This document shows positions 55,553 through 64,000 of a stretch of 64,000 nucleotides of DNA, piece by piece. The stretch covers positions 1,106,153 to 1,170,152 of the forward strand of contig CP034928.1 in NCBI GenBank assembly GCA_004102645.1. Reading direction: 5' to 3'. Made by a program: the position numbers and the translations under genes. How positions within the stretch are numbered: the stretch's first letter is position 1; each line of letters opens with the position of its first letter. The DNA is from Candidatus Bipolaricaulis sibiricus. GTDB taxonomy: Bacteria; Bipolaricaulota; Bipolaricaulia; Bipolaricaulales; Bipolaricaulaceae. The notes below the pieces were generated by a model that ran no database searches, had not been told where the DNA came from, and was given only the letters and a program-made list of their open reading frames with translations.

Positions 55553-57709
55553 GTGGCCGGGCTTCTGCGATTTCTCGTCGTTGTACTCTGTCTGTTCTCC
55601 GCCGCCGCTGTGGCTGCGCCAGAGAAACTCGACCCATTTCTGCGTCTGCTGCTCGCGGCGCACGACGGGGAAGGCCCCGTCTCCCTTTTCACCCCGGAGG
55701 CCCTGCCGAATCTGATCGCGTTGGGGGAAGCTCCTCACGCTCCGCTCGACGCGTGGCGGGCAGGCGTTCCCATCCAGGTATTCGTCCTGACGGCAGACCC
55801 CGGCGCCGCACGGGCACTTCCCCTGTTCCGGCCCCACCAGGTACTGGGCCGGCTCGCAACTGGTGAAGTGGCTCTCGCAGATCTCACGGCGCTCGCTGCC
55901 GACCCGCAGGTAGTGTACGTCGAGGCCAGTCGACCGGTGTACCCGACGCTCGATCGCTCCGTGCCCGAGACGGGGGCGCCCGCTCTGTGGTACGCAACAC
56001 CCGGTGCGACCGGTCGGGGGGTGCTCGTCGGCATCGTGGACTCGGGCATCGACATTCTCCACCGCGACTTCCGTGTGGACCGAGACGGCGATGGGATCGA
56101 AGAGGGGACGCGGATCTTCTACCTGTGGGATCAGACAGGGGTCGGAGCCACGGGGTTCCCGTACTGGTGGGGGGACGTGCTCGCCGAGACCTACTATGGA
56201 CGAGCATTCTCCCGCGATGAACTCGAGCGGGCGATCGCTAGCGGGTTCGCCCCCACCCTCGACACCCACGGCCACGGCACCCACGTCGCTGGCATCGCGG
56301 CGGGCGATGGCTCGGCTTCGCCCTTAGGGCTGCGAGGAGTTGCACCCGAGGCTGAGCTCGTGGTGGTGAAGACCACGTTCTATCAGAACACGGTGGTGGA
56401 TGGGGTGAGGTTTGTGTTCGAAGCCGCGCAGGCCCGTGGAATGCCCGCCGTGGTGAACCTGTCGCTCGGCAGCCACAGCGGCCCGCACGACGGCACCTCG
56501 TTGTTCGAGCAGATGCTCGACGCCATGCTCGATCGGCCTGGCAGGGCAATCGTAGTTGCCGCTGGGAACGAAGGGGACCGACGGATCCACGTTGCCGGAG
56601 ACGTGCGAGCTCCCACCACGTGGCACCTCGAAGTAGAGAAGAGCACTGTGTCTGTTCAGCTTTGGCACATGGGAACAGCTAGCTTCTCCCTGGAAGTCCG
56701 GACCCCAGGCGGTGAGTCCGTGAGCGTCCTTCCGTCGAGCCAGCGTTGGACATCCACCGCCTCCGGCGGAGTGTGGCTCGACAACACGTCCCTCCCCGAC
56801 CCTCGCAACTTGGGCCGCTACATCTACATCGCTCTGAGTGAGGTCACTCCGGGGACAACGTGGGCCCTCACGCTCACCCCGGTCATCGGCGGGGGCCGCG
56901 TGGACGGGTGGGTGGAGAACCCCTCGGCGGGTCAGTTCAGAGAAGGCGACTCGGACTACACGATCAGCGAGCCGGGGAACGCCCAACGCGTGATCACGGT
57001 CGGTGCCTACGTCACGAAGAACCGCTGGACCGCGGTCACGGGGGAGCAGACGGGGGATGGAATCGTAGGAGCGCTCGCGTCGTTCTCCTCGCGCGGGCCA
57101 ACGCGAGACGGTCGTCTCAAACCCGATCTTGCGGCACCAGGAGCGTGGATCGCGTCGGCCCGCTCTGTCAGCGCTTCACCTGGGGGGTGGCTCACCCTCC
57201 CCGGGGGTGAGTACTCGATGCTGCTTGGGACGAGCATGGCCGCGCCCCACGTGGCGGGAGCCGTGGCCCTGCTGTTCTCTCGTCGGCCCAACCTCACCTG
57301 GTCCGAGGTCAAGGATGCCCTTGTTGCTGGAGCAAGGGCTGACTCCCACGTTGGGATGGCACCAAACCGCTCCTGGGGCGCAGGGAAGCTCGATATCGCC
57401 CGCAGCGCGGCAGCCATCGGGGGCACTGCGCCAGCGGGAAGACCCTCCCTCCAGATCACAGCCAACCCCGTGTCCCGTGAGGCGGTGTTCGCTTACCGAT
57501 GCCCTCCGGAGACCCTGTGGGCAAGCCTCCACGTCTACGACCTTGCCGGACGATTGCTCTTCACCCAGCTGCTGGCCCTCCCCTCGGGCGAGGCGCGGTG
57601 GCCTCTGTCCACCGCCTCGGGGGAGCGAGTTGCGAGCGGGCTCTACCTCGCCGTGGTCGTAACAGATCGAGCGCGTTCTGAGACTGTCCGGGTGGTGGTC
57701 CAGCGATGA
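55553..57709 (+). CDS. Secreted S8 subtilase with a T9SS type-A-like C-terminal domain
   Basis: Signal peptide; catalytic triad VDSGID, HGTHVAGIA, GTSMAAPHVAG; C-terminus NPVS...VYDLAGR...ASGLY...RVVVQR. Confidence 0.92.
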   Translation: MAGLLRFLVVVLCLFSAAAVAAPEKLDPFLRLLLAAHDGEGPVSLFTPEALPNLIALGEAPHAPLDAWRAGVPIQVFVLTADPGAARALPLFRPHQVLGRLATGEVALADLTALAADPQVVYVEASRPVYPTLDRSVPETGAPALWYATPGATGRGVLVGIVDSGIDILHRDFRVDRDGDGIEEGTRIFYLWDQTGVGATGFPYWWGDVLAETYYGRAFSRDELERAIASGFAPTLDTHGHGTHVAGIAAGDGSASPLGLRGVAPEAELVVVKTTFYQNTVVDGVRFVFEAAQARGMPAVVNLSLGSHSGPHDGTSLFEQMLDAMLDRPGRAIVVAAGNEGDRRIHVAGDVRAPTTWHLEVEKSTVSVQLWHMGTASFSLEVRTPGGESVSVLPSSQRWTSTASGGVWLDNTSLPDPRNLGRYIYIALSEVTPGTTWALTLTPVIGGGRVDGWVENPSAGQFREGDSDYTISEPGNAQRVITVGAYVTKNRWTAVTGEQTGDGIVGALASFSSRGPTRDGRLKPDLAAPGAWIASARSVSASPGGWLTLPGGEYSMLLGTSMAAPHVAGAVALLFSRRPNLTWSEVKDALVAGARADSHVGMAPNRSWGAGKLDIARSAAAIGGTAPAGRPSLQITANPVSREAVFAYRCPPETLWASLHVYDLAGRLLFTQLLALPSGEARWPLSTASGERVASGLYLAVVVTDRARSETVRVVVQR

Positions 57710-58512
57710 AGACCTGCGCGACAGCACTCTGCATCCTCGCGGCAGCCCTGACCAGCGCCGCTGCGGGGTTCATCGGCGGGGACATCCTGTTCGACCTCGG
57801 GGCAGGAGCGCGCAGCGCCGGAATGGGGGGAGCCGGGATCGCTCTCCCCGCGAGCGACGCCTTGTTCGTCAACCCGGCGGGTCTCCCGTGGGTCGAGGGC
57901 ATCCAGGTTGTCTCCACCTATGGGAACGTGTTCGACGTCGCCGACTTCGGCGCGCTGTCCGTTGGGATGCCGGGGCTTGCGGCGGCCGGGCTCGTGCTAG
58001 ACGCAGGGACGATTGGGCCTGCCCTCGCCTATCGAACCACCGGTGCCGTGGTGGGAGCCGGCGTGCGCCTGGGACCGCTGGGGGCTGGCGTGCGGGCACG
58101 CCTGGTGCGCCCAGTGGCTCCTGTTCCCGGCGCGGGCGGAGCCCTCGACTTCGCCCTCCTCTGGCGCGGCCCCGTGCAGGTGGGAGCGGTGTGGCGTGCT
58201 ATCCTTTCCCAAGCCCCTGTTGCAGCTGAGTCCTGGCCTGCCGAACTTGAAGTTGGCCTCGCGCTGCCGGTTCGGGGTTTCGGCCTTAGCGCGTCGCTCG
58301 CCCTCGATGTGACCGGCGTGGGTACCGACCCCTCATTCGCCCTTGGCGGCGAGGTGGGTGCCGATTGGCTCTTCATCCGTGCCGGGTACGGCCCCGCCGG
58401 TGTCGCCATCGGCGGCACGGTGCGGTGGAGGCCGTTCGCCCTTGACTGGGCGGTTCTCCTGCACCCGGTTCTACCGGCCACGTATCGCGTATCCTTTGCA
58501 GTGAGACTATGA
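57706..58512 (+). CDS. PorV/PorQ-like outer-membrane beta-barrel protein (copy 1)
   Basis: Signal peptide, GARSAGMGGAGIA...NPAGL, alternating beta-strand pattern and C-terminal YRVSFAVRL. Confidence 0.7.
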   Translation: MKTCATALCILAAALTSAAAGFIGGDILFDLGAGARSAGMGGAGIALPASDALFVNPAGLPWVEGIQVVSTYGNVFDVADFGALSVGMPGLAAAGLVLDAGTIGPALAYRTTGAVVGAGVRLGPLGAGVRARLVRPVAPVPGAGGALDFALLWRGPVQVGAVWRAILSQAPVAAESWPAELEVGLALPVRGFGLSASLALDVTGVGTDPSFALGGEVGADWLFIRAGYGPAGVAIGGTVRWRPFALDWAVLLHPVLPATYRVSFAVRL

Positions 58513-61500
58513 TGAGAAGATACCTACTCGTTCTCCTCGTCGGCGGCGGCATCGCGTTGGCCCAGCAGACCCCCAGCTTCAACCTAACAGTGAGTGGGGA
58601 GAAGACGTGGACCATCTGGCTCGGGTTGGGGTCGGCGAGCCTGCTTGCGGACCAGGACCTGACCCCGGGCCAACCCGCCCTCACCCAGACCCTGCGCGCG
58701 ATGATCGAGGGCAAGGCCCTCGGGTTCATCACCCTCCGGGCGAGCTTCAACGATCAGCTCGACGTCGGGTTCCAGGACTTCTTGCTCACCGTGGATCGCA
58801 CTCCGTGGACGGGAGAACTCGGCCGGTTCGTCGTCGGGGCGGAGGGAGAGGGCCTCGGGGTGTACAACAAGCGCGTCCTAGGCGCCCGGGTCGGCTACGC
58901 CAGCGATGGTGTGGCGCTGAACGCCGTCGTGACGCGGCTCGAGGGCATCTCCGAGTCGCGCACGTTCCGCGGGGAGGAAGGCCGCGGGGAGGCCCTATTC
59001 ACGGTCAACGATCCCGACGAGCCGTGGCGCGAGGCGGCCTACCTCCGCTCCGTGGAGGGCCTCGCCTACTGGCCGCTCCGGATTCAGTTCGTGGAAGGAC
59101 TGACGAACGTCCAGCTTCGCCTGAGCGGAACCTCCGCCCTGTGGACGTTCCTCGCCGAGTGGGGCCTCGACTTCATCCGGGACGACCTGGCCGCCGAGCT
59201 GGTGACCCCGCTGACAGCGGCAGAGTACGTCGTGCTGCGCAACGAGCGCGACGATCTTGCCCTGCGCGTCGCGCCGTCCACCCTGGCGCGGCGGCGAGTC
59301 CAGCAGGCGATCGACGCCTACAACGCACGTCTTGGGCTTACGGGCAAAGATCGCAAGACCTACCCGTTCGTCGAAGCTAGCGAGCTCGAAAACCGCTTCC
59401 TGGCGGGGTTCACCGGGTTTCTCGCCGTCCTCGTCGACGACGACGCCCACCCGTTCTCCGACCTCGCGCGCCGCCGCTACCTGTTCCTCGGCGAGCGCGA
59501 CGTGATCGAGGGGTCGGTCGAGGTGTGGATCCGCCGGCCGGGAGAGACCGACTACCGTCCGTCGACGGATCCCGAGCTTGGAGAGTACACCTGGACGCTG
59601 CTGCCTGCCGACGGGACACTGCGCATTTCGTTCCCCTCAGCGTTCTTCACAGGGGGCGCAGTGCGCGTCGCCTTTGCCTACCGTCGGGAGGGGACGGCTT
59701 TCTCCCTGGGCCCCTCGCTTGTCCCAGGCTCAGAGCGGGTGACGCTCAACGGGCGCCGGCTCGCCCGGGGCACCGACTACAGCCTGGACTACGCGTCTGG
59801 CGTCCTGCTCCTGTTCACCCCCCTCGGGCCCGACGACGAGCTACGGGTCGACTTCGAACGCCAGCGCGGCGGGCTGGGCGCCGTCACCGACTACGAGCGG
59901 AACCTGTTCGGGCTTACCCTCAGCGTGCCCGGCTGGGACGGGTTCAAGCTCGCCCTGTACCGGGCGATGGACTCCGGCTCGCCCCGACCCACCACGCACA
60001 CGATGCCCAACACCCACAGCGTGGCCGCCGTGTCCGCGTCGGGCAAGGTCGCGGGGTGGACCTACAGCCTGAGCCTCGCTGGATCGGAGAACATCTTTCC
60101 CTTCGACGACAACGCCCGCGTACCCTCTGCGAATCGAGTTCGCGCAATCGTCAGTGCTCAGGCTCCTGATGGGGAGTACGTGATCCTCGGGCACCACAAC
60201 GGTCTCACCGTGTACAAGGACGGGACGTTCGCCGCCTACGGGCCCGCCCACGGCCTGGGGGGTCGGTCGGTTCATGCCCTGCTCGCTCTCCCCGGGCAAC
60301 TGCTCGTCGGCACAGATGCGGGGCTGACCGTGGTCCGCCTGGCCGAGGCGACGCCGTTCGATCGCGTGAGGAGTTGGGTCAGGGTCACCGGGACAGACCA
60401 ACTCCCGGGAACCGAAGTTCTGGCCCTGACCCGCGCCGACGGCCGGGTGTACCTCGCCACTGACACCGCCCTCGTCTCGTTCCGGGCCGCCGATAGCGAG
60501 GACCCCAGCAAGTGGGATCGAGCGGACCTGCCCACCAACGGCGGCCGACCGACAGCCCTGCTGGGGACGGACGGGCGGCTGTACCTCGGCACGACCAGCG
60601 GGCTCTACCTGCGCACCGACGGGGAGTGGATGCTCGTCGTCGACGCCGCGGGGATGATCCACGACCTCCTCGCCCGCGGCCAGGACGTGTACGTGGCGTC
60701 CGAGCACGGCATTCGGATCCTCCGCGGCGCGAGCGGTGTGGGGTGGGCAGCGTTCGGGACGGCCGTGTACGGTCTGGCGCTGCGGGACGGCATCCTGTGG
60801 TACGCGGCCGAGGACGGCCTGTGGCAAGAGAACCAGATCGGCCCTGTCGTCAGCGGGCCCGTGACCGCGGTCGGGGCCGGGCAAGGGGCGGTGTGGGCGG
60901 CCGCCAAGGCCAGCGCGGACTTCCGGCTCGACCTGTGGCGGGTGATCGACAGCGCGGAGAGGCTCCCCCCGACCCGGACCAAGCTCGACGGCCGCGACCT
61001 CGGGCGGTTCCAGGACATCCCAGCGGCAGACCACACCCGGTACGGGACCTCGGCCAGCCTCGCCCTGACCCAGACCTTCGGCGACTGGCAGTGGGAGCTG
61101 CGCGCGGCGAGCCGGCTGCCGGGGTACGAGGAGATCGGGCGCCCTGGGCGCTCCGACAGCCACGGGCTGAGCCTTGCCGCCCGCTACACCGGCGGCGGCC
61201 CGACGAGCGTCGACGTCCGGGCGAGGTGGGATCTGACCAACCTCGCGACCAAGCCCCGCGGCCGACTCGCCGGCAGCGTGGACTGGCGCTGGTCCGACGG
61301 CCCCACCGCCACTGTGTCCATCACCCCGACCCTCACCGGTGACGGGCTGGTGTCGTTCCACCAGCTGGAGCTGGGGTGGCAGGCCGGTCTGTCGAACAAG
61401 ACCCAGGCGTGGTCGTGGGGGGTGACCACCAGCGGTACGTTCCGCTCCCCCGCCCTCGTCGCCTCCGGTCAGCTCGGGGCGACCTTGTCCATCGTTCCGG

Positions 61501-62375
61501 TGCCGGGGTGGACGATGGACCTGAGCTGGACCCGGCCGTTCCGTACAACGGGCGCCCCGGGCAGCGAGACGTTCCGCGCCGTCCTACGGTGGGCTGCCGA
61601 GACCGACCGCGCGTCGCTCAATGCAAGCTGGCAGGAGGACTGGCGACACCATCTCACCGCCGGCACGTGGCGGGACGAGCGCACCCTCCAGGGCGATGCG
61701 CGATGGAAGGCATGGTCGATCCCCGATGGCGGCACTCTCACAACGCGCCTGTCGACGTCAGTCCGACTCAGTCCCACTGAGCAGCGCTGGACCTCCCGTG
61801 TGGAGGCCGACATCGCTCGTTCGCCGAACGTGATCCGGCTTCGGGTCACCCTCGGGCAGGGTCTTCTGCCGCTCACCGAGCGGTCCGATCGAACCCTCGG
61901 TCTCTCTGTGTATTGGGAGACCACGGCCTGGGAGGGGGTGCGGGCCTCCCTGCAATGGGACAGGTCGTGGCTCACCCTCTCCCATCCTCGCTACCCAACG
62001 CAGACCACGGACAAGGAAGAGGTTACAGCCCGCGCAACGTGGGAACCGAAGGGTGCCACCTGGCGAGACGCCCTCACCCTGACCTGGAAACCCCGTGCCA
62101 AGGAGGCAGCCCTCTCCAATCGGCTGACATGGGCCCTCGGAGCAGCCTCCCTGTCGGTAGACACGTCCGCCACCCTCAAGGGTGAGGCGCTTGATGTGAA
62201 GACCACGGCCCAGCTCGGTCTACCTCTGGACACCATCCTCACCGCCCTCGGAGCGAGGCCGATCGGCGACACATGGGGGATCAGCGCCGAGATGGGTCAC
62301 ATCGTGTCCCTCAAGGGGAGAGCCGAGCCCAGACATGCCCTGTTCATGGGCGTGACTCTCGCTGTCCGGTTCTGA
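58509..62375 (+). CDS. Large secreted beta-rich protein with a SprA-like motif and internal beta-propeller
   Basis: Signal peptide; LVPGSERVTLNGRRLARGTDYSLDYASG; propeller repeats (LLVGTDAGL, LYLGTTSGLY, LWYAAEDGLW); C-terminal strands ending in F. Confidence 0.7.
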   Translation: MMRRYLLVLLVGGGIALAQQTPSFNLTVSGEKTWTIWLGLGSASLLADQDLTPGQPALTQTLRAMIEGKALGFITLRASFNDQLDVGFQDFLLTVDRTPWTGELGRFVVGAEGEGLGVYNKRVLGARVGYASDGVALNAVVTRLEGISESRTFRGEEGRGEALFTVNDPDEPWREAAYLRSVEGLAYWPLRIQFVEGLTNVQLRLSGTSALWTFLAEWGLDFIRDDLAAELVTPLTAAEYVVLRNERDDLALRVAPSTLARRRVQQAIDAYNARLGLTGKDRKTYPFVEASELENRFLAGFTGFLAVLVDDDAHPFSDLARRRYLFLGERDVIEGSVEVWIRRPGETDYRPSTDPELGEYTWTLLPADGTLRISFPSAFFTGGAVRVAFAYRREGTAFSLGPSLVPGSERVTLNGRRLARGTDYSLDYASGVLLLFTPLGPDDELRVDFERQRGGLGAVTDYERNLFGLTLSVPGWDGFKLALYRAMDSGSPRPTTHTMPNTHSVAAVSASGKVAGWTYSLSLAGSENIFPFDDNARVPSANRVRAIVSAQAPDGEYVILGHHNGLTVYKDGTFAAYGPAHGLGGRSVHALLALPGQLLVGTDAGLTVVRLAEATPFDRVRSWVRVTGTDQLPGTEVLALTRADGRVYLATDTALVSFRAADSEDPSKWDRADLPTNGGRPTALLGTDGRLYLGTTSGLYLRTDGEWMLVVDAAGMIHDLLARGQDVYVASEHGIRILRGASGVGWAAFGTAVYGLALRDGILWYAAEDGLWQENQIGPVVSGPVTAVGAGQGAVWAAAKASADFRLDLWRVIDSAERLPPTRTKLDGRDLGRFQDIPAADHTRYGTSASLALTQTFGDWQWELRAASRLPGYEEIGRPGRSDSHGLSLAARYTGGGPTSVDVRARWDLTNLATKPRGRLAGSVDWRWSDGPTATVSITPTLTGDGLVSFHQLELGWQAGLSNKTQAWSWGVTTSGTFRSPALVASGQLGATLSIVPVPGWTMDLSWTRPFRTTGAPGSETFRAVLRWAAETDRASLNASWQEDWRHHLTAGTWRDERTLQGDARWKAWSIPDGGTLTTRLSTSVRLSPTEQRWTSRVEADIARSPNVIRLRVTLGQGLLPLTERSDRTLGLSVYWETTAWEGVRASLQWDRSWLTLSHPRYPTQTTDKEEVTARATWEPKGATWRDALTLTWKPRAKEAALSNRLTWALGAASLSVDTSATLKGEALDVKTTAQLGLPLDTILTALGARPIGDTWGISAEMGHIVSLKGRAEPRHALFMGVTLAVRF

Positions 62376-62436: not shown

Positions 62437-63288
62437 CTAGAACCGAGCGCCGAACCCGAACCGGTGCGAGGCTGACAGGACCGGATGCGTGAGCAGCGCG
62501 TAGTCGAGCACGAACATTCCCCATCGCGCCCCAAGACCGAGCGCCCACTGCAGGCCCGCCTGGAAGCGCAGACCAGCGCGAATCTCGAACGCCCCGAACG
62601 CAGACCATCCGACCCCGATTGCCGTGTACTCCGCGGTGAGGTCCATCGCGAGGGTCAACCCAAGGGGATTCACCAGCGCCACACCCGCCGCGAGATCCGT
62701 TGTCCAACCATCGCTCGTCTCCCCAACCGTGGGTCCGAACCCAAACTCTCGCAGTGCCAGGCCTACTCGGAGCGGCCCCACCGGGGTGCCCAACCGCCCG
62801 AGGAGCCCCACGTCGAGCGCAAACCCGCTCCCCGACGCGTCAGCGATGCGCACGTTGTGGTACTTGATCGCCACCCCACCCGCTGCCGGGAAGGGAAACA
62901 CGCGTAGCATCGTCAGATCGAACGCGGCACCCAGCACAGCCGCCAGGTGCGAGAAGGCGAGCGGATCGCCCTCTGGATCCGTGATCCCGCCGACCCCGAG
63001 GTACCCCACCCCCGCACCGAAGTTCGGGACCGCACCCCCGATCCACGTCACCGAGTACAGCCCGAGCACGCTCGACAGGCTCGAGTCGGCGCGCGTCCCG
63101 GTTGACCACGCCAGCCCGGCCGGGTTGGTGAGGAGGGCCTCCGTGCCCTCGGCGATGGCGATGTACGCCCCGCCGAACCCCATCGCCCGAACCCCCAGAC
63201 CCACGTCGAACGGGTTCGGCAAGCCCTGGCCCAGGGCCAGCGTCCCGGCCAAGACCACGCCCAACAGCGTGAACGCTCGTCGCATCAT
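62437..63288 (-). CDS. PorV/PorQ-like outer-membrane beta-barrel protein (copy 2)
   Basis: GAGGAGG RBS; signal peptide; GVRAMGFGGAYIA...NPAGL; GFALDVG; C-terminal HRFGFGARF. Confidence 0.72.
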   Translation of the reverse strand: MMRRAFTLLGVVLAGTLALGQGLPNPFDVGLGVRAMGFGGAYIAIAEGTEALLTNPAGLAWSTGTRADSSLSSVLGLYSVTWIGGAVPNFGAGVGYLGVGGITDPEGDPLAFSHLAAVLGAAFDLTMLRVFPFPAAGGVAIKYHNVRIADASGSGFALDVGLLGRLGTPVGPLRVGLALREFGFGPTVGETSDGWTTDLAAGVALVNPLGLTLAMDLTAEYTAIGVGWSAFGAFEIRAGLRFQAGLQWALGLGARWGMFVLDYALLTHPVLSASHRFGFGARF

Positions 63289-63295
63289 CCCCTCC

Positions 63296-64000
63296 TCAGC
63301 GCACCACAAGGATCTTCCCGACTTCTGAAGAGATGGTCCCACCGTCCACGCGGGCTGTGACAAGGAAGAAGTACAGCCCGTCGGCGATCGCGCGACCATT
63401 CCCATCCCTGAGATCCCACGTGAACTGCGTGCCCGTCACATCGCTCCGCCGCACCTCGCGGCCCAGCATATCGAAGATCTGGATCTGGGCCTGAGCTGCG
63501 CCGGCGGGCAGGACGAGCTGAATCCGGCACTGGGTCCGCGCAGGGTTGTCCAGCAGCCGGGTACCAATGCCGCCGCCAACCGGCAACACCGTGACGTCTC
63601 GGGCGAACCACTCTCCCCACCCCCCGGCGTCGCGGGCCCGTGCCTGAACCCGGAACACACCGCTCGCGGCGAAGGTATGGGTCTTGACGTTCGTCTCGCT
63701 CGGCACAACCGTGTCATCGCCCAACTTCCACTCATAGCCCGTGATGGGGTCTCCGTCCGGATCGGCGGCCGTGGCCGTGAACGTGATCGCCTGCCCCACC
63801 TGAGGATCGGCGGGGTTCGGCGTGATCGCGCTCACCACCGGCCGTCGGTTCACAGGAGTGGCGGTCACCGTGACCACCTTCTCCTTCGTGCCGACCTCAC
63901 CCCGGCTGTTCGTGACCGAAAGGACCACGGTGTACGTGCCCGCCGCAGCGTAGGTGTGCGTCGGATTCTGCACCGTCGACGTCCCGCCGTCCCCAAACGC
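63296..64000 (-). CDS. PKD-domain protein with a T9SS type-A-like C-terminal domain, 5'-truncated by the window edge
   Basis: The frame stays open to the edge (FGDGGTSTVQNPTHTY, PKD). A second PKD-like repeat has YEWKLGD. C-terminus NPAR...IFDMLGR...WDLRDGNG...DGLY...KILVVR. Confidence 0.9.
   Translation of the reverse strand, partial: AFGDGGTSTVQNPTHTYAAAGTYTVVLSVTNSRGEVGTKEKVVTVTATPVNRRPVVSAITPNPADPQVGQAITFTATAADPDGDPITGYEWKLGDDTVVPSETNVKTHTFAASGVFRVQARARDAGGWGEWFARDVTVLPVGGGIGTRLLDNPARTQCRIQLVLPAGAAQAQIQIFDMLGREVRRSDVTGTQFTWDLRDGNGRAIADGLYFFLVTARVDGGTISSEVGKILVVR

Follow-up and report, generated by a model that had tools for sequence, protein, structure and literature searches.

We analyzed a stretch of 64,000 nucleotides (the window; contig CP034928.1 of assembly GCA_004102645.1, forward-strand positions 1,106,153 to 1,170,152) from Candidatus Bipolaricaulis sibiricus, a member of the phylum Bipolaricaulota whose genome (the source genome) is closed and has a size of 1.70 Mb and a G+C content of 67%. 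This study concerns a C-terminal domain, the tail, that is present on two secreted proteins encoded toward the end of the window, and the outer membrane protein genes that lie between them. The features of this region are the following, numbered from the first letter of the window.

55553 to 57709, plus strand: S8 (subtilisin-family) serine protease of 718 amino acids with a signal peptide (Peptidase_S8, E = 1.2e-44)
57446 to 57706, plus strand: C-terminal domain of the S8 protease, approximately residues 632 to 718, ending in VRVVVQR (AlphaFold2, Foldseek, TIGR04183)
57706 to 58512, plus strand: PorV/PorQ-like 14-strand outer membrane barrel no. 1, 268 amino acids (PorV profile, AlphaFold2, Foldseek)
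58509 to 62375, plus strand: SprA-like large outer membrane protein, 1,288 amino acids, the presumed conduit (weak TIGR04189 match)
62437 to 63288, minus strand: PorV/PorQ-like barrel no. 2, 283 amino acids from the ATG at 63288 (PorV_fam, E = 9e-11)
63296 to 64000, minus strand: 3' part of the gene for a PKD-repeat surface protein (PKD_4, E = 2e-40)
63299 to 63556, minus strand: C-terminal domain of the PKD protein, residues 917 to 1002, ending in GKILVVR (FlgD_ig, TIGR04183, hidden Markov model of foreign S8 tails)

The ATG of barrel no. 1 overlaps the stop codon of the S8 gene (ATGA), and the start of the SprA-like gene overlaps the stop codon of barrel no. 1. On the opposite strand, barrel no. 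2 starts 7 nucleotides past the stop codon of the PKD gene and is preceded by a GGAGG ribosome-binding site. The PKD gene extends past the end of the window; according to the genome open reading frame (ORF), its full-length product has 1,002 amino acids and a signal peptide. The translated protease contains the catalytic Asp, His, and Ser motifs (DSG, HGTH, and GTSMAAP).

An earlier note on this DNA had proposed that these two otherwise unrelated proteins carry the same C-terminal sorting domain, of the kind used in type IX secretion. Reading of the ORFs confirmed the location of both tails, each of which ends at the stop codon, and alignment recovered in both the motifs that had been quoted, namely, NP, [VI][YF]D-x-x-G-R, W...G...G-L-Y, and a terminal basic/hydrophobic strand. 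The carriers are indeed unrelated outside the tail, since their N-terminal parts consist of a Peptidase_S8 domain and of PKD repeats, respectively. A direct phmmer comparison of the two tails among the 7,948 ORFs of the genome produced a weak reciprocal best match (E of 0.06 to 0.1), and for this reason the case for homology was built on a profile of orthologous tails. S8 orthologs in three other assemblies retain the tail, and a hidden Markov model made from their four tails, with the source genome excluded, matched the PKD tail over its full length (E = 4e-13, 48 bits). Taken together with the unrelated remainder of the two proteins, this match indicates that the S8 and PKD tails are homologous at the sequence level, which confirms the initial observation. 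The claim that the other secreted proteins of the window lack the tail was also borne out: the tail profile matched these two window ORFs only, and the remaining ORFs with signal-peptide-like or membrane-like N termini have different C termini.

To define the type of domain, we used an alignment of 50 Bipolaricaulota C-terminal tails (alignment A2). Among the NCBIfam models, TIGR04183 matched 46 of these tails (E ≤ 0.01), followed by the models for PorZ (39/50), PorU (33/50), and FlgD (19/50); the PorU-model matches fall in the tail region of that model. Among the Pfam families, CHU_C matched 32 tails, weakly, FlgD_ig matched 30, and Por_Secre_tail matched 26. Compared with the sequences of the Protein Data Bank (PDB), the A2 profile identified as best match the tail of PorU (6ZA2, residues 1059 to 1154; E = 1.1e-10), followed by PorZ (5M11; 7e-7), with FlgD (5e-5), the Flavobacterium johnsoniae sorting domains from SprA complexes (8GLJ_D, 5e-4; 8GLK_D, 9e-3), and RgpB (5HFS; 0.02) at lower rank. 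The AlphaFold2 model of the S8 tail has seven strands and a predicted local distance difference test (pLDDT) score of 95.4. In a Foldseek search with this model, PorU (6ZA2; query TM-score of 0.78, root mean square deviation of 2.4 Å, 24% identity, E = 6e-6) and PorZ (5M11; query TM-score of 0.66, E = 5e-4) were the sole matches with an E value below 1e-3; the remaining matches were generic immunoglobulin (Ig) or fibronectin type III domains, and FlgD was not among the top 50.

Type IX tails have been defined as seven-strand 3+4 Ig-like β-sandwiches, in which Mizgalska et al. identified two functionally required motifs, the β3-β4 loop and the C-terminal strand (PMC11285876). In RgpB of Porphyromonas gingivalis, this loop has the sequence FDMNGRR, and replacement of its Gly699 by Arg blocks secretion, whereas the C-terminal strand contains a conserved Lys; the tails of PorU and PorZ remain uncleaved and have an extra hairpin after β5 (PMC11285876). 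The Bipolaricaulota tails compare with these features as follows. (i) The loop Gly is invariant in the 50 sequences of A2, where it is part of [VI][YF]D-x-x-G-[RK]; the PKD tail reads FDMLGRE. (ii) The last strand, β7, follows the pattern [KR]-[LV]-V-[VI]-x-R, with Lys or Arg at position -6 in 42 of the 50 tails and a terminal Arg in 40. (iii) A W-x-L-x4-G-x5-G-x-Y stretch aligns best with PorU and PorZ, at the site of their extra hairpin. We conclude that the tails are copies of one seven-strand Ig-like C-terminal domain of approximately 85 residues that belongs to the superfamily of type IX type-A and FlgD Ig-like domains, and that, by profile as well as by fold, they are closest to PorU and PorZ, whose tails remain uncleaved, and more distant from FlgD. 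The kinship suggested in the earlier note thus holds at the family level through the TIGR04183, PorU, and PorZ matches and through the best PDB matches, so that the resemblance is not limited to generic FlgD Ig-like domains.

A scan of the source genome with the tail profile, as had been proposed, defined a cargo set of four carriers. In addition to the S8 and PKD proteins, these are the following, both encoded outside the window.

Third carrier (tail profile): DUF7507/DUF11/CARDB repeat protein of 856 amino acids
Fourth carrier (tail profile): protein of 981 amino acids without known domains

The tails of these two proteins differ somewhat in subtype, with the ending F-K-G-[FY]-V-Y-I-[QK]-R, and all four tails of the genome finish exactly at the stop codon. 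An initial scan of the whole genome with TIGR04183 had found three of the four carriers, one of them above the cut-off. Signal peptides were called by a simple heuristic; signal-peptide-like N termini are present in all four carriers but in only 178 of the 1,427 genes of the rough gene set (12.5%), which corresponds to a hypergeometric p of 2.3e-4. The carriers are therefore enriched in signal peptides, and none of the findings that would have refuted the earlier note was obtained. Directly upstream of the 856-residue cargo gene, at a distance of 10 nucleotides, is a gene for a 554-residue protein (C1:425946-427610, minus strand, equivalent to L005:3547-5211) with a signal-peptide-like start; this protein matched no Pfam family, lacks the tail, and may be associated with the 856-residue cargo, which has no PorV-like neighbor.

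The source genome encodes three PorV-like paralogs, and each of their genes is located directly downstream of a tail-bearing gene (S8, PKD, and 981-residue protein). Homology to PorV is apparent at several levels. A profile of 37 members of this barrel family (alignment A3), among them barrel no. 2, searched against the PDB, had a single significant match, which covered the full length of F. johnsoniae PorV (6H3I_F; E = 2.8e-14). Of the 37 barrels, 28 matched the PorV/PorQ family model NF033709 (E ≤ 0.01), 12 matched the PorQ model, and 8 matched the PorV model; no match to the PorP/SprF models was obtained among them, and there was one stray match to FilD. The two window barrels scored 26.5 and 41.9 bits against NF033709, below its cut-off of 90 bits. 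The AlphaFold2 model of the barrel (pLDDT score of 93.6) shows 14 strands and an N-terminal helical plug, and the top Foldseek match was PorV from the SprA complex (8GL6_F; E = 1.8e-8), followed by FadL. The neighboring barrels are thus 14-strand, FadL-like proteins homologous to PorV. In a maximum-likelihood tree of the barrels, all nine that are linked to cargoes other than S8, from the source genome and three genomes of other families, were found on one side of a single branch, and the S8-linked barrels of the same genomes were found on the opposite side (support of 91/98, recovered in 92% of the bootstrap trees). None of 500 label shuffles was as clustered. The pairing of cargo and barrel is therefore old and stable.

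We then surveyed 121 genomes of the phylum, of which 63 were of high quality, covering 42 genera. The tail was detected in 119 of the 121 genomes, including all 63 of high quality, and in every one of the 42 genera. The copy number was 1 to 44 in the survey run; a fuller scan of four cargo-rich genomes returned 20, 22, 33, and 87 copies. The SprA-like gene was present in 114 of the 121 genomes, nearly always as a single copy. Because tail and putative pore are both nearly universal in the phylum, we relied on gene adjacency and not on co-occurrence. In 45 or more genomes, distributed over several families, the SprA-like gene was preceded on the same strand, at a distance of 0.8 to 1.2 kb, by the best tail match, and the order S8, PorV-like, SprA-like was kept in loci L001 to L003 and at least 45 genomes of the phylum. 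At all 30 loci retrieved from relatives, only 0 to 1 residue separated the end of the tail from the stop codon, and a PorV-like ORF came directly next. In the four cargo-rich genomes, approximately 33 of 38 domain matches were at the extreme C terminus, and a PorV-like gene adjoined 13 of 30 loci. In at least 8 small or incomplete genomes, the sole tail detected was on an S8-sized protein, which was adjacent to the pore gene where the contigs permitted checking.

Two relatives deviated from this arrangement. In a distant one, with an SprA-like protein of 30% identity, the pair of tail-bearing S8 gene and PorV-like gene is tandemly duplicated upstream of the pore gene (L003:3771-10004); both S8 tails lack the usual terminal Arg and end in ...VVSL and ...VVAP. 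A genome of the same family as the source genome (G103, 83% complete) contains 7 SprA-like matches on four contigs and 24 tail copies, whereas its close relatives have 1 pore gene and 2 to 6 tails; this excess could reflect real amplification, mixed strains, or a fragmented assembly.

Other components of type IX secretion and of the cell envelope were searched for in the source genome and 20 relatives. The catalytic part of PorU was not found in these 21 genomes, in which the PorU model was matched via the tail only (positions ~940 to 1095 of 1095), nor was the body of PorZ. GldL was not found either, save for one weak match in one relative. Matches to the GldK model, present in 7 of the 21 genomes, were rejected as PorK, since they correspond to generic FGE-sulfatase domains (formylglycine-generating enzyme type) that reach 86 bits compared to a cut-off of 350; the only such match in the source genome is an FGE-sulfatase (SUMF1-type) domain protein at C1:1296517-1297287 (plus strand). 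Of the full type IX set, the PorU sortase, GldL/GldM, and a true GldK were thus not found in these genomes, in which GldN, PorW, PorT, and PorP were not searched for as separate models. No member of the MotA/ExbB/TolQ family was detected in the 21 genomes, whereas nine control genomes were positive, and LpxC was absent from 20 of the 21, with four positive controls. BamA/Omp85 was above the cut-off in all 21 genomes. These genomes therefore look like those of diderms without lipopolysaccharide (LPS) and without a known stator-type motor. The absence of LpxC and the presence of BamA agree with Hao et al. 2018, who reported that a closed Bipolaricaulis genome has no LPS genes and encodes a BamA-type surface antigen, with an envelope that is probably of a simple, Thermotoga-like diderm type (PMC6092417). 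The same authors found no recognized adhesins, a single extracellular protease, and no flagellar genes (PMC6092417).

The tail and its own PorV-like barrel gene point to a stripped-down form of type IX export outside its known bacterial group. In the reading that we consider probable, the tail is the signal by which cargoes are exported and anchored in a minimal system of the type IX kind, which operates without motor or sortase and pairs each cargo with a cognate barrel. This system may work as follows. (i) Cargoes would be taken across the inner membrane by Sec, as suggested by the N-terminal signal peptides on all of them. (ii) In the periplasm, the folded tail would serve as the address for passage through the outer membrane via the single SprA-like protein. 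(iii) A PorV/PorQ-like 14-strand barrel, for most cargoes here encoded by the very next gene, would receive the tail. (iv) The tail would be retained, so that the cargo stays attached noncovalently to the cognate barrel on the cell surface; release of the cargo, if any, would occur by proteolysis. With neither a PorU-type sortase nor a lipid A pathway, cleavage of the tail and joining of the cargo to anionic LPS presumably cannot occur, and the tail is therefore probably retained as a tether. There are precedents for anchoring on barrels: PorU is bound to PorV and PorZ to PorQ (PMC5562754), and type-B cargoes are anchored uncleaved on PorP/SprF-like barrels encoded next door (PMC9143113, PMC12618676).

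The composition of the conserved locus is also relevant to a different fate of the tail. It could be a true sorting signal that is removed after export by the S8 protease, which would then act like PorU, as a protease only, and release the cargo into the medium. S8, PorV-like, and SprA-like genes form a core conserved across the phylum, the protease has intact catalytic motifs and itself bears a PorU-like tail, and it is the only detected tail carrier in the small or incomplete genomes mentioned above; the single extracellular protease of the closed Bipolaricaulis genome (Hao et al., PMC6092417) also favors this idea. However, the tails most resemble precisely those two P. gingivalis tails that are left uncleaved, the location of dedicated barrel genes next to cargo genes suggests that the partners stay together, and the conserved S8 neighbor could equally be the original cargo. 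We therefore regard removal of the tail by the S8 protease as rather unlikely.

A number of observations, given in this and the following two paragraphs, weigh against the reading of the tail as an export and anchoring signal. The first group relates to the scores of the tails. The S8 tail is just under the TIGR04183 cut-off of 23 bits (21.5 to 21.9), which is exceeded by the PKD tail (25.4) and by the 856-residue protein (27.1). The earlier note had suggested scoring the tails against PF13860 and PF18962, and the outcome was mixed. For FlgD_ig (PF13860; cut-off of 27), the PKD tail reached 35 to 39 bits, whereas the S8 tail (13), the 856-residue protein (18.1), and the 981-residue protein (18.5) did not pass. 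For PF18962 (cut-off of 27), both window tails were below the cut-off: scores of 18 to 20 were obtained in three of the four carriers (20.2 for the PKD tail), and the S8 tail had no match. FlgD_ig is thus the only Pfam cut-off passed by a window tail, and by the PKD tail alone. CHU_C scored 18 to 23 bits on the PKD tail (cut-off of 27), and the window tails are under the type-B cut-off; a Pfam scan of the isolated S8 tail gave no match at an E value of ≤0.01. In addition, the wider superfamily is huge, with 162,249 cluster representatives at an E value of ≤1e-3 in a search of 1.84 billion proteins, and its top scorers contain 8 to 24 internal tandem copies. The fold alone, therefore, does not imply sorting. 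Single-copy proteins in the same list end at the C terminus with the domain. A few tail copies in the relatives are internal as well, and in the source genome internal weak matches to the tail profile were found in two small Cys-rich proteins. These proteins have 193 residues (C1:874660-875241, plus strand, equivalent to L008:161-742) and 199 residues (C1:403305-403904, minus strand, equivalent to L009:106-705), and their non-C-terminal matches have E values of 2e-5 and 5e-3, respectively; the 193-residue protein has a signal-peptide-like N terminus and a Cys-Pro-rich, hydrophobic end.

The FlgD_ig score, the size of the superfamily, and the internal copies are what one would expect if the domain were a generic Ig module of the FlgD type that serves in structure or adhesion and whose C-terminal placement is unrelated to secretion. 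We consider this highly improbable for the following reasons: (i) the domain has an exact C-terminal site with the ending K/R-[LV]-V-[VI]-x-R, as seen at all 30 loci of the relatives and in most domain matches of the cargo-rich genomes; (ii) the tail is tightly linked to PorV-like and SprA-like genes; (iii) PorU and PorZ are closer than FlgD both in sequence and in fold; (iv) in the source genome, the tail is found on signal-peptide proteins only; and (v) the published Bipolaricaulis genome has no flagellar genes (PMC6092417).

The second group of observations concerns transport. All 18 members of the SprA-like family that were analyzed matched TIGR04189 (SprA/Sov) and no other model, with a best E value of 4.7e-8, and yet this match is a single short stretch far below the cut-off. 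Furthermore, the family profile did not retrieve SprA from the PDB sequences, where it gave only a weak propeller match. Homology of the 1,288-residue protein to SprA is thus weakly supported by sequence. No motor that could energize transport was detected among the parts searched for. GldM was not found in the 21 genomes in a search that had no positive control, and this absence is consequently weaker than those of MotA/ExbB and LpxC. Finally, the 856-residue cargo gene has no adjoining barrel gene. Weak SprA homology and the lack of a motor are compatible with a tail that only docks on the PorV-like barrel, while the outer membrane is crossed in another way, for example via BAM (the β-barrel assembly machinery) and the barrel in a two-partner or autotransporter manner, and the SprA-like protein does another job. 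The presence of BamA in all genomes searched fits this scenario, as does the distance between many cargo-barrel pairs of the relatives and the SprA-like gene. On the other hand, the structures of FadL and PorV indicate that a folded protease is too wide to pass through a FadL-like barrel of 14 strands that contains an N-terminal plug. Moreover, the exclusive match of 18 out of 18 family members to the SprA model and the near-universal, single-copy SprA-like gene, which overlaps the stop codon of the S8-linked barrel gene, argue against this scenario. We therefore judge a tail that serves for docking only to be improbable.

A genome scan across all species with the SprA-like alignment returned contigs of Bipolaricaulota/Acetothermia only; the patterns used were narrow, and the result is uninformative on other phyla. 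Five contigs (L074, L079, L094, L095, and L098) with SprA-like homologs of 40 to 72% identity are titled Thermotoga sp. or uncultured Thermotogaceae; these contigs of metagenome-assembled genomes are probably mislabeled bins.

Export and anchoring by the tail, with the cognate barrel as partner, thus remains the reading we favor. The type IX interpretation of the earlier note is supported, whereas export itself is something that we infer. Our results extend the initial proposal in that there are four cargoes and not two, in that the machinery is heavily reduced, and in that the tail most resembles those that remain uncleaved and bound to a barrel. A more far-reaching view, which is possible but on balance doubtful, is that the locus represents a proto-type-IX system consisting of a protease cargo, a PorV-like carrier, and a half-size SprA-like pore, without proton-driven motor, ring, or sortase. 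In such a system the tail would be a permanent tether, and the PorU:PorV and PorZ:PorQ complexes would be relics of an older logic of cargo and barrel; the S8 protease may be equivalent in function to PorU.

In the reviews and papers that we found, type IX secretion is described as confined to the Bacteroidota or the FCB (Fibrobacteres-Chlorobi-Bacteroidetes) group and as requiring a proton-driven motor and a sortase that joins cargo to LPS. Searches of the open literature gave no paper that connects Bipolaricaulota or Acetothermia with type IX secretion, and in public annotation the S8 orthologs are listed only as S8 peptidases or hypothetical proteins, without any record of a tail domain. 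The type of domain and the PorV family are already known. What is new is their occurrence in this phylum, the reduction of the gene set, the fact that type-A-like tails and PorV-family barrels are paired one to one, and the resemblance to PorU and PorZ, whose tails stay uncleaved. Sorting tails of this kind and PorV-family barrels belong to the core genes of this phylum, which is distant, uncultured, and devoid of LPS. If the tail directs export, a number of implications can be derived. (i) It defines the surface proteome of Bipolaricaulota, which would comprise four proteins here and up to 87 in relatives. (ii) The locus would offer a three-gene system for asking what the minimal requirements of such transport across the outer membrane are. 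(iii) The data would suggest that binding of a tail to its cognate barrel, and not processing by a sortase, may be the older way of holding cargo.

Comparison with known systems shows likenesses to several of them. The closest are the PorU and PorZ tails of the P. gingivalis attachment complex, which share the seven-strand 3+4 sandwich, the Gly-bearing β3-β4 loop, the W-x-L-x4-G-x5-G-x-Y stretch between β5 and β6, and a basic residue in the last strand; there, too, the tail is partnered with a PorV-family barrel (PorU:PorV and PorZ:PorQ; PMC5562754). However, the tails of PorU and PorZ belong to parts of the machinery, whereas the Bipolaricaulota tail is carried by ordinary cargoes, namely, a protease and surface proteins rich in repeats, and its partner barrel is encoded by the next gene. 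With the type-A cargo of Bacteroidota, the tail has in common the C-terminal position on Sec-exported proteins, the fold, and a loop of the RgpB FDMNGRR type. In those bacteria, one general PorV serves all cargo, and PorU removes the tail and attaches the cargo to anionic LPS; in Bipolaricaulota, which are outside the Bacteroidota and the FCB group, there are several cognate PorV-like barrels, and no sortase, lipid A pathway, or PorK/L/M was found. The FlgD Ig-like domain (7EH9, 3OSV) belongs to the same superfamily, and the PKD tail passes the PF13860 cut-off, but FlgD is a flagellar hook-cap protein in which the domain is not a C-terminal signal. No flagellar context was seen for the carriers described here, which include an S8 protease, a protein with PKD repeats, and a DUF7507/CARDB repeat protein; the neighboring genes are PorV-like and SprA-like. 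As in the type-B systems (SprB-SprF and PG1035-PorP), the cargo gene adjoins the gene of its own outer membrane barrel, although the Bipolaricaulota barrels are of the PorV/PorQ family (FadL-like, 14 strands) and not of the PorP/SprF family. The logic is thus a hybrid of type-A-like tails, PorV-family barrels, and the one-to-one gene pairing known from type B.

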